A DNA stretch of 31,908 bases from Desulfovibrionaceae bacterium. GTDB lineage: Bacteria; Desulfobacterota; Desulfovibrionia; Desulfovibrionales; Desulfovibrionaceae. Where the stretch lies: positions 1-31,908 of the forward strand of contig JAGADT010000157.1 of the NCBI GenBank assembly GCA_017613475.1. The letters are read 5' to 3'. Position 1 is the stretch's first letter. Each line of letters begins with the position of its first letter. Below the pieces are notes generated by a model, which saw only the letters and a list, made by a program, of their open reading frames with translations, did no database searches and had not been told where the DNA came from. The translations under genes and the position numbers were made by a program. Shown one piece after another: positions 1,734 to 1,968 of this stretch.

Positions 1734-1803
1734 CCACCTGTACGGCTGCCCTCTTTGTCTCTTCACGCCGGCACGGCGCAAACAGTAACGGGAGGGCTCA
1801 GCC

Positions 1804-1875
1804 ATGCGGAGATGTATTTTCACTCTGCTGATCGCAGCGGTCCTGGTTCTGTTGTTCGCCATTAAGGCTAACTAA
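1804..1875 (+). CDS. 23-aa hydrophobic peptide MRRCIFTLLIAAVLVLLFAIKAN, putative type I toxin
   Basis: GGAGGG SD at 1791-1796; one uninterrupted hydrophobic segment flanked by basic residues; promoter upstream, hairpins downstream. Below the ORF-track size cutoff. Confidence 0.75.
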   Translation: MRRCIFTLLIAAVLVLLFAIKAN

Positions 1876-1878
1876 CAG

Positions 1879-1913
1879 TTGACCCCGGCCCACTCGCGAT
1901 GGGTCGGGGTCGA
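1879..1913 (+). other. 14-bp stem-loop immediately after the small-ORF stop codon
   Basis: TTGACCCCGGCCCA-CTCGCGA-TGGGTCGGGGTCGA; the two mismatches are G-U pairs on the plus strand. Confidence 0.7.
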
Positions 1914-1968
1914 TAAATAATTACCCGTTGGCAGCCGTGCACGGGGGCGTTTAACCGCGCCGTGCCAG

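Follow-up and report, generated by a model that had tools for sequence, protein, structure and literature searches.

A module at about 1739-2009 of the window (the whole 31,908-nt stretch of Desulfovibrionaceae DNA that was analyzed) represents, judging from sequence, an undescribed type I toxin-antitoxin (TA)-like family marked by a strongly covarying pair of crossing helices that spans the gene. This is a larger finding than the one first stated. The sequence-only reading of this DNA had proposed a multi-state folding switch around the Shine-Dalgarno (SD) region from four complementarities; all four are present, and all lie in the mRNA of a gene for a 23-aa hydrophobic peptide. We regard the multi-state switch as well supported and infer which of its states is translated. 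Our main reading, to which we assign a probability of roughly 0.45, is that ordered refolding controls this mRNA and that the unprocessed form carrying the helices H2 and H3 is the translated one. The features of the module and its surroundings are:

1626-1659, minus strand: terminator that could end an antisense RNA in the window copy; not a feature of the family
1703-1731, plus strand: sense promoter (-35 at 1703-08, 17-nt spacer, -10 at 1726-31)
1739-1750, plus strand: a1, the 5'-terminal arm, lying in the nascent RNA over the start-codon region and later the partner of b1 (H2)
1748-1755, plus strand: anti-SD, the 5' arm of H1, with a 3-nt overlap with a1
1765-1780, plus strand: local hairpin P2, a rival to H3, with a2 as its loop and 3' arm; P>0.5 in 71/71 nascent folds
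1770-1779, plus strand: a2, the 5' arm of H3, with covariation
1790-1797, plus strand: SD region, read from the sequence and paired in H1
1804-1875, plus strand: ORF for the 23-aa hydrophobic peptide, a putative membrane toxin with a basic N-terminus and an S/A-x-A-x end
1826-1846, plus strand: H6, a moderately supported second anti-SD inside the ORF that would retake the SD region after H1 is displaced
1849-1878, plus strand: helix P8 (1849-53:1874-78), spanning the stop codon; 14 tree swaps, found in the unbiased scan
1878-1914, plus strand: post-stop hairpin P9 with a variable loop; 38 swaps, found in the unbiased scan
1915-1929, plus strand: variable single-stranded linker containing the non-conserved arm of H4
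1930-1941, plus strand: b1, the 3' arm of H2 and anti-anti-SD, on covariation and folding
1938-1965, plus strand: local 3' hairpin H5, made of the end of b1, the G-run and b2, a rival to H3 and to the outer end of H2
1957-1966, plus strand: b2, the 3' arm of H3, with covariation
1967-2009, plus strand: terminal hairpin of 15 bp with a C3-U5 tail; the plus strand folds better than the minus strand in 69/71 copies
2009-2037, minus strand: convergent antisense promoter (-35 at 2037-2032, -10 at 2014-2009), start at about 2001-2003

The module is flanked by a Sel1-repeat gene and a hicAB pair in a 1.3-Mb, 74% complete assembly of Desulfovibrionaceae type. None of 147 other loci adjoined hicAB, and we rejected a link to that pair. 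The Sel1-repeat genes stand in tandem (window 1-741 and 923-1429), and a 40-nt terminator, near-identical in the two cases, follows each of them (766-805 and 1453-1492). Transcription of the module probably starts at about 1738-1740, approximately the first base of a1, and a TTG-17-TA pattern was found 5-9 nt ahead of a1 on the sense strand in 70/71 homologues. The segment at 1600-1733, with the minus-strand terminator and the promoter, was 86% identical to a block at G000 C89:3564-3693 ahead of the module of another peptide family, which suggests promoter exchange between the two families. Copies of this second small-peptide family were found at window 3006-3290 and in G000 C163, C54, C137, C29, C191 (two) and C89; the peptide is of 27 aa, with a D-xxx-G Fst/Ldr-like motif in intact copies, and the window copy is frameshifted. 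The layout is the same (local anti-SD hairpin, terminal hairpin with an SD-complementary tail, convergent promoter), and a 3' segment pairs with the whole 5' arm, over 14-15 bp in two copies.

The module appears to be an uncatalogued, multi-copy, type I TA-like element of host-associated, gut sulfate-reducing Desulfovibrionaceae. More than 110 distinct copies were found in host-associated members (Bilophila, Mailhella, Desulfovibrio piger), and DNA searches identified carriers in about 30 of 400 Desulfovibrionaceae genomes, including Bilophila wadsworthia ATCC 49260, D. piger, Mailhella and uncultured Desulfovibrio. A search of 300 genomes of the phylum found it nowhere outside this family. 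It also occurred in gut metagenomes and on one viral contig, while a plasmid search gave no match. The contig of copy L083 (CAAFXA010000049.1) is binned as uncultured Akkermansia, probably by a binning error and possibly through transfer. Tandem arrays of 2-5 copies were present at 31/147 loci, and tandem copies and broken halves were common. Neither module nor peptide had an above-threshold match in Rfam, Pfam or NCBIfam, an exact look-up of nine family peptides in a protein collection returned 0/9, and a literature search that was short on subscription papers and had T1TAdb outside its scope found no description of the module.

The peptide was 22-24 aa long in 69/71 copies, with a best 13-residue hydropathy of 2.8-3.8, and the ORF showed a coding pattern by codon position of 0.47/0.27/0.54. 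It is thus a small, one-helix hydrophobic ORF with an SD and under coding constraint, as expected of a type I toxin gene. Three copies on JGI metagenome contigs (L111, L121 and L163) have a TTG start in place of ATG. Four-fold sites of the ORF diverged by 0.08 relative to 0.33 in promoter spacers, a value biased downwards by the choice of pairs; this low divergence points to constraint on the ORF at the RNA level. The peptide also resembles a bare signal peptide, since it ends in S-x-A-x in 48/71 copies, gave weak, sub-threshold LPAM_1 matches and matched no toxin family. It might accordingly be a non-toxic membrane peptide encoded by a structured mRNA with a cis-antisense regulator, and no TA pair at all. 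We consider this very improbable, as the tandem arrays, patchy distribution, frequent broken copies, SD lock and convergent promoter together form the pattern of a type I TA system.

We assessed the complementarities in an alignment of 71 copies (mean identity 66%), to which 43 more were later added for a 114-copy tree. H1 (1748-53:1792-97, 6 Watson-Crick pairs) extends to 8 bp (1748-55 with 1790-97), H2 (1741-50:1930-39, 9 Watson-Crick pairs and one U-G) extends to 12 bp (1739-50:1930-41), H3 (1770-79:1957-66) has 10 Watson-Crick pairs and H4 (1787-92:1924-29) has 6. Two helices of at least 10 bp between the 5' and 3' UTRs occurred in 0/1000 dinucleotide shuffles and one in 3%, while a 6-bp match was found anywhere between the UTRs in 92% of shuffles and between the two short windows of H4 in 5%. 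Over the 71 homologues, H1, H2 and H3 were each cognate-specific (p=0.0005, with kin not independent). Covariation, as the earlier reading required of homologues, was found for all three in 71-114 copies, and by this sequence evidence we take them to be real. H4 gave p=0.76 for cognate specificity and was missing from the unbiased helix scan, and its linker evolved at the neutral rate. We rejected it as a functional helix; the AACGGG:CCCGTT pairing that had been made part of the switch is a chance match and is not conserved.

For H2 and H3 together, 97.1% of cells were paired and two-sided changes were seen at 15/22 pairs, a level reached by none of 500 shuffles and by none of the slid controls. 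Watson-Crick swaps on the 114-copy tree numbered 46 for H2 and 9 for H3, relative to 1 and 2 for alternative registers. For H3 this undercounts the swaps, since b2 was constrained by the search patterns. In copies found without that constraint both arms were rewritten (12/12 in L138 and L202, 11/11 in L203, 10/11 in L036 and 13/13 in L227), and in these divergent copies (L138/L202, L203, L036, L227) the arms of H2 and H3 were rewritten together. H3 was 98-99% paired and rewritten wholesale in divergent copies. In its one commonly varying pair, a C in b2 (21 copies) always faced a G in a2, and 3 of those 21 copies kept the G-C of H3 though the competing pair of the local hairpin was broken. Since G-U outnumbered A-C by 75:14 in H2 and 20:9 in H3, both helices can be placed on the plus strand. 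H1 had about 14 swaps with a fitted register; part of the SD is deleted jointly with anti-SD sequence in L121, and L107 carries a compensating insertion in H2. P9, the terminal hairpin, H2, the new short helix P8 and H3 held the top ranks of the unbiased scan. A repeated 7-mer makes the nested registers a1:b2 and a2:b1 possible, and these showed zero covariation; pairings of the G-run with the tail or L1, and of the SD with the tail, had no cognate preference. L138:10150-10430, L202, L119 and L203 form a divergent subfamily that includes B. wadsworthia ATCC 49260 and has H1, H2 and H3 rewritten; L138 is without the U tail and keeps a near-consensus antisense promoter.

The first three helices had been described as mutually exclusive. 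This holds for H1 and H2, which have 1748-1750 in common, the extended H1 also taking up 1738-1747 over the start-codon region. It does not hold for H2 and H3, which merely cross. As these share no base and are joined by loops of 10 nt or more in 71/71 copies, they can coexist as a pseudoknot, and we regard them as probably partners, not rivals. H3 never showed up in nested folds, as it crosses H2 and has P2 and H5 as rivals; H5 reached P>0.5 in 53/71 of the full-length folds of this nested kind, with 3 swaps at its outer pair. When a2 and b2 were masked in the ensemble and the stacking energy of H3 was added, the pseudoknot state lay below the nested ensemble by a median of 7.6 kcal/mol (10.1 in the window copy) before any loop penalty. 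Penalties for pseudoknots are of a size similar to this gain, and the pseudoknot of H2 and H3 around the SD, the ORF and P9 would therefore be near balance.

Folding of full-length and 3'-truncated forms indicated that the SD is not always accessible, and together with covariation it supports the proposed switch. H1 had P>0.5 in 69/71 nascent folds, so that on folding and covariation the SD appears sequestered in the primary transcript, as in type I TA systems. Along the length series the median P(SD:anti-SD) fell from 0.99 in the nascent RNA to 0.83 just before b1 and 0.07 once b1 was transcribed, at which point median P(H2) was 0.98 and the SD paired with the ORF segment at 0.67. In most copies the H6 segment falls on the same codons, with some clear matched changes. 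It was not stronger than in synonymous shuffles (mean z -0.17 with host codon usage, -0.76 pooled), and column-level mutual information was uninformative because its registers shift. Opening of -16 to +6 cost 16-17 kcal/mol before b1 and 14-15 after it (21.5 and 15 in the window copy), relative to a median of about 9 kcal/mol for the initiation region of ordinary genes here. Counting against our best model, P(SD unpaired) reached only about 0.1, no predicted state opening the SD, the cost of 14-15 kcal/mol is above that of ordinary genes, H6 does not beat its shuffles, and the form with H2 and H3 was not more open than that with H2 alone (14.8 vs 14.1).

It had also been suggested that 3' trimming of the hok/aapA type activates the mRNA. 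On that polarity the full-length form with H2 and H3 would be an inert store, and trimming that stalls at H2 would yield the translated form; the C3-U5 tail, kept close to the SD by H3, might serve as a third anti-SD, with the tail, the terminal hairpin or b2 being removed. AapA3 has upstream, ORF-internal and 3'-end anti-SDs in that order (PMC6733600), the tail can pair with the SD over 8 bp and was picked up by the unbiased scan, a sister module family of the same genome has a near-perfect anti-SD tail, and the lowest opening cost (14.1) belongs to the form ending at b1. Nevertheless, the tail pairing was not cognate-specific and barely exceeded shuffles (-7.9 v -7.2, p=0.97), the L138 subfamily has lost the U tail, the 15-bp hairpin caps the 3' end and tail removal left predicted SD access unchanged. 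Trimming past 1930, into b1, brought the SD lock H1 back, and no 3'-trimmed form freed the SD in silico. Both b1 and b2 lie upstream of the stable terminal hairpin, and H3, which can form only in untrimmed RNA, is the best-kept long helix. A hok-like polarity is thus probably wrong and we consider it rather unlikely, although the possible tail:SD pairing and the marginally more open form ending at b1 lend it some weight. One broken copy also bears on it: L195:1340-1630 (minus strand) has promoter, ORF and b1 intact, breaks inside b2 and has no terminator or antisense promoter, and would thus make the supposed active form without an antitoxin promoter. In L045:380-620 the promoter and ORF are intact and everything from b1 on, including the antisense promoter, is missing. 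Both copies, each known from one assembly, weakly fit the expectation if activity needs both 3' arms; they may be cross-protected or unstable.

H2 and H3 might instead serve as a protective or antisense-docking clamp, comparable to the upstream helix of par RNA I, with no gating of translation: the SD would always be hidden, by H1 and then H6, and a constant leak of translation would be suppressed by antisense RNA. The SD was occluded in all predicted states, a1 begins at the predicted +1, and the upstream helix of Fst sequesters the 5' end and stabilizes the RNA (PMC7472228). A clamp does not account for the overlap of a1 and the anti-SD in every copy or for the mimicry by b1 of the start-codon region that it displaces, and stability needs no H3 that competes with two conserved local hairpins. 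We therefore judge a pure clamp improbable. The mimicry is close, as the start-codon region at 1800-1807 is a one-mismatch direct repeat of b1 (1933-1940), which would enable b1 to displace it from a1; an antisense RNA would hence contain, in addition, a segment resembling a1 that could pair across the start codon.

Ordered refolding, our main reading, would proceed as follows. In the nascent 5' UTR, a1 and the anti-SD would pair over the SD and start codon (H1) and prevent translation during transcription, as covariation and folding indicate. Once transcription has passed the ORF, b1 would take a1 (H2) and displace H1, a step suggested by the same two lines of evidence, and the SD region would then be held only by the weaker, moderately supported H6. 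Next, b2 would unzip P2 and H5 and pair with a2 (H3), a pairing that appears to be under selection; if H2 and H3 form simultaneously, the result would be a pseudoknot with the whole gene in its middle loop. This slowly reached, unprocessed form may be the one usable by ribosomes: the anti-SD would be gone, and a structured element would come immediately before an A-rich unpaired stretch and hairpin H6, an arrangement like that for standby loading in timP/tisB. We favor the unprocessed form because H3 needs untrimmed RNA, the 3' end carries a stable hairpin, trimming past b1 re-locks the SD and, as a weaker point, the L195 copy exists. timP provides a precedent whose logic is the same but whose geometry differs (PMC13000454). 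Finally, an antisense RNA from the convergent promoter may bind the 3' UTR via the unpaired linker beside b1 and strip b1 and b2 off a1 and a2, whereupon H1 would re-form and the duplex would be open to RNase III. Tentatively, then, the mRNA of the toxin may be switched on by its own 3' UTR, without processing, through a gene-looping two-helix pseudoknot, and the antitoxin may bind only the 3' UTR and yet flip the 5' end to the SD-locked fold.

The antisense promoter was found at the same spacing from the stem in 54/71 copies by a strict pattern and was visible in most others. The RNA data were unstranded contigs, with patchy coverage of the B. wadsworthia copy. From the promoter position, a start near 2002 is expected for the putative antisense RNA, which would then run through b2, b1 and the linker and could therefore block H2 and H3; the linker beside b1 is a candidate toehold, and P9 could form its 3' end structure. 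A strong hairpin comparable to the 1659-1626 terminator was present in 6/71 copies and any candidate in 18/71, and a family-wide 385-nt antisense RNA was rejected as the upstream terminator is mostly absent. P9 is a doubtful minus-strand terminator, because pairing in P8 explains the purine tract after the stop codon. Divergence of the 3' loops (0.35-0.44) equals the promoter-spacer level (0.33-0.34); diversifying selection on them was therefore discarded and they give no evidence for antisense recognition sites. Orphan 3' halves in L220, L046, L047, L143, L172, L192 and L062 run from P9 or a substitute hairpin through the antisense promoter, with no ORF or 5' UTR, and are possible orphan antitoxins.

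In its control the module would work like timP/aapA-type mRNAs and is a member of neither family. In timP the SD is hidden in the nascent mRNA, and a pseudoknot and long-range pairing lift the lock without processing (PMC13000454, PMC11295053). Like enterobacterial timP/TimR, the module has a small putative membrane peptide, an SD hidden when nascent and mutually exclusive pairings; unlike it, the module has helices that cross from the 5' to the 3' UTR over the ORF and a convergent promoter, whereas the switch of timP is confined to the 5' UTR and TimR is divergent. Only 1/30 module peptides hit the TimP family, weakly (E=0.012), which we do not count as a family match. The aapA/IsoA and hok/Sok antitoxins are antisense to the 5' region of the toxin mRNA. 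The module differs from these systems in its independent terminal hairpin cap and in an antisense promoter at the 3' end; moreover, their 3' end is inhibitory and trimmed to activate, whereas the 3' arm of the module would remove the upstream anti-SD. It shares with aapA/IsoA of Helicobacter pylori (PMC6733600) and hok/Sok the successive hiding of the SD (upstream, then ORF-internal), multiple copies and, through H2 and H3, long-distance 5'-3' pairing in the full-length mRNA, and no Pfam, NCBIfam or Rfam match to their toxin or RNA families was found. Convergent promoters, a 5' SD-hiding stem-loop, a 5'-end helix and no known processing are common to the module and par/Fst RNA I-RNA II (PMC7472228), but the arms of the module are inverted repeats on one strand and those of par direct repeats read oppositely, and a shared bidirectional terminator is not evident in the module. 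The Fst/Ldr signature (P/D/S/T-xxx-G motif, conserved Trp, charged C-terminus; PMC7472228) is absent from the peptide alignment. As in ibs/Sib of E. coli (PMC8309996), the hydrophobic peptide is very short and its C-terminus is not basic, copies are repeated in tandem and an antisense promoter lies 3' of the ORF; the module peptide is, however, 22-24 aa vs 19 aa for IbsC, and any antisense overlap with its ORF is hypothetical. No Ibs match in Pfam or NCBIfam (30 members, sensitivity being limited by the short peptides) and no Sib match in Rfam was found.

How unprocessed type I toxin mRNAs are activated is an open question, raised for fst and txpA (PMC11295053). timP is the one solved case, and the module family would provide another design, independent of it and with natural covariation of unusual clarity; each helix is therefore testable by compensatory mutations supplied by nature. 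To our knowledge, no type I toxin mRNA has been described with a conserved pseudoknot that links its two UTRs and encloses an entire bacterial ORF. With this family, an unannotated module present in multiple copies is also recognized in culturable gut commensals and pathobionts such as B. wadsworthia ATCC 49260 and D. piger.
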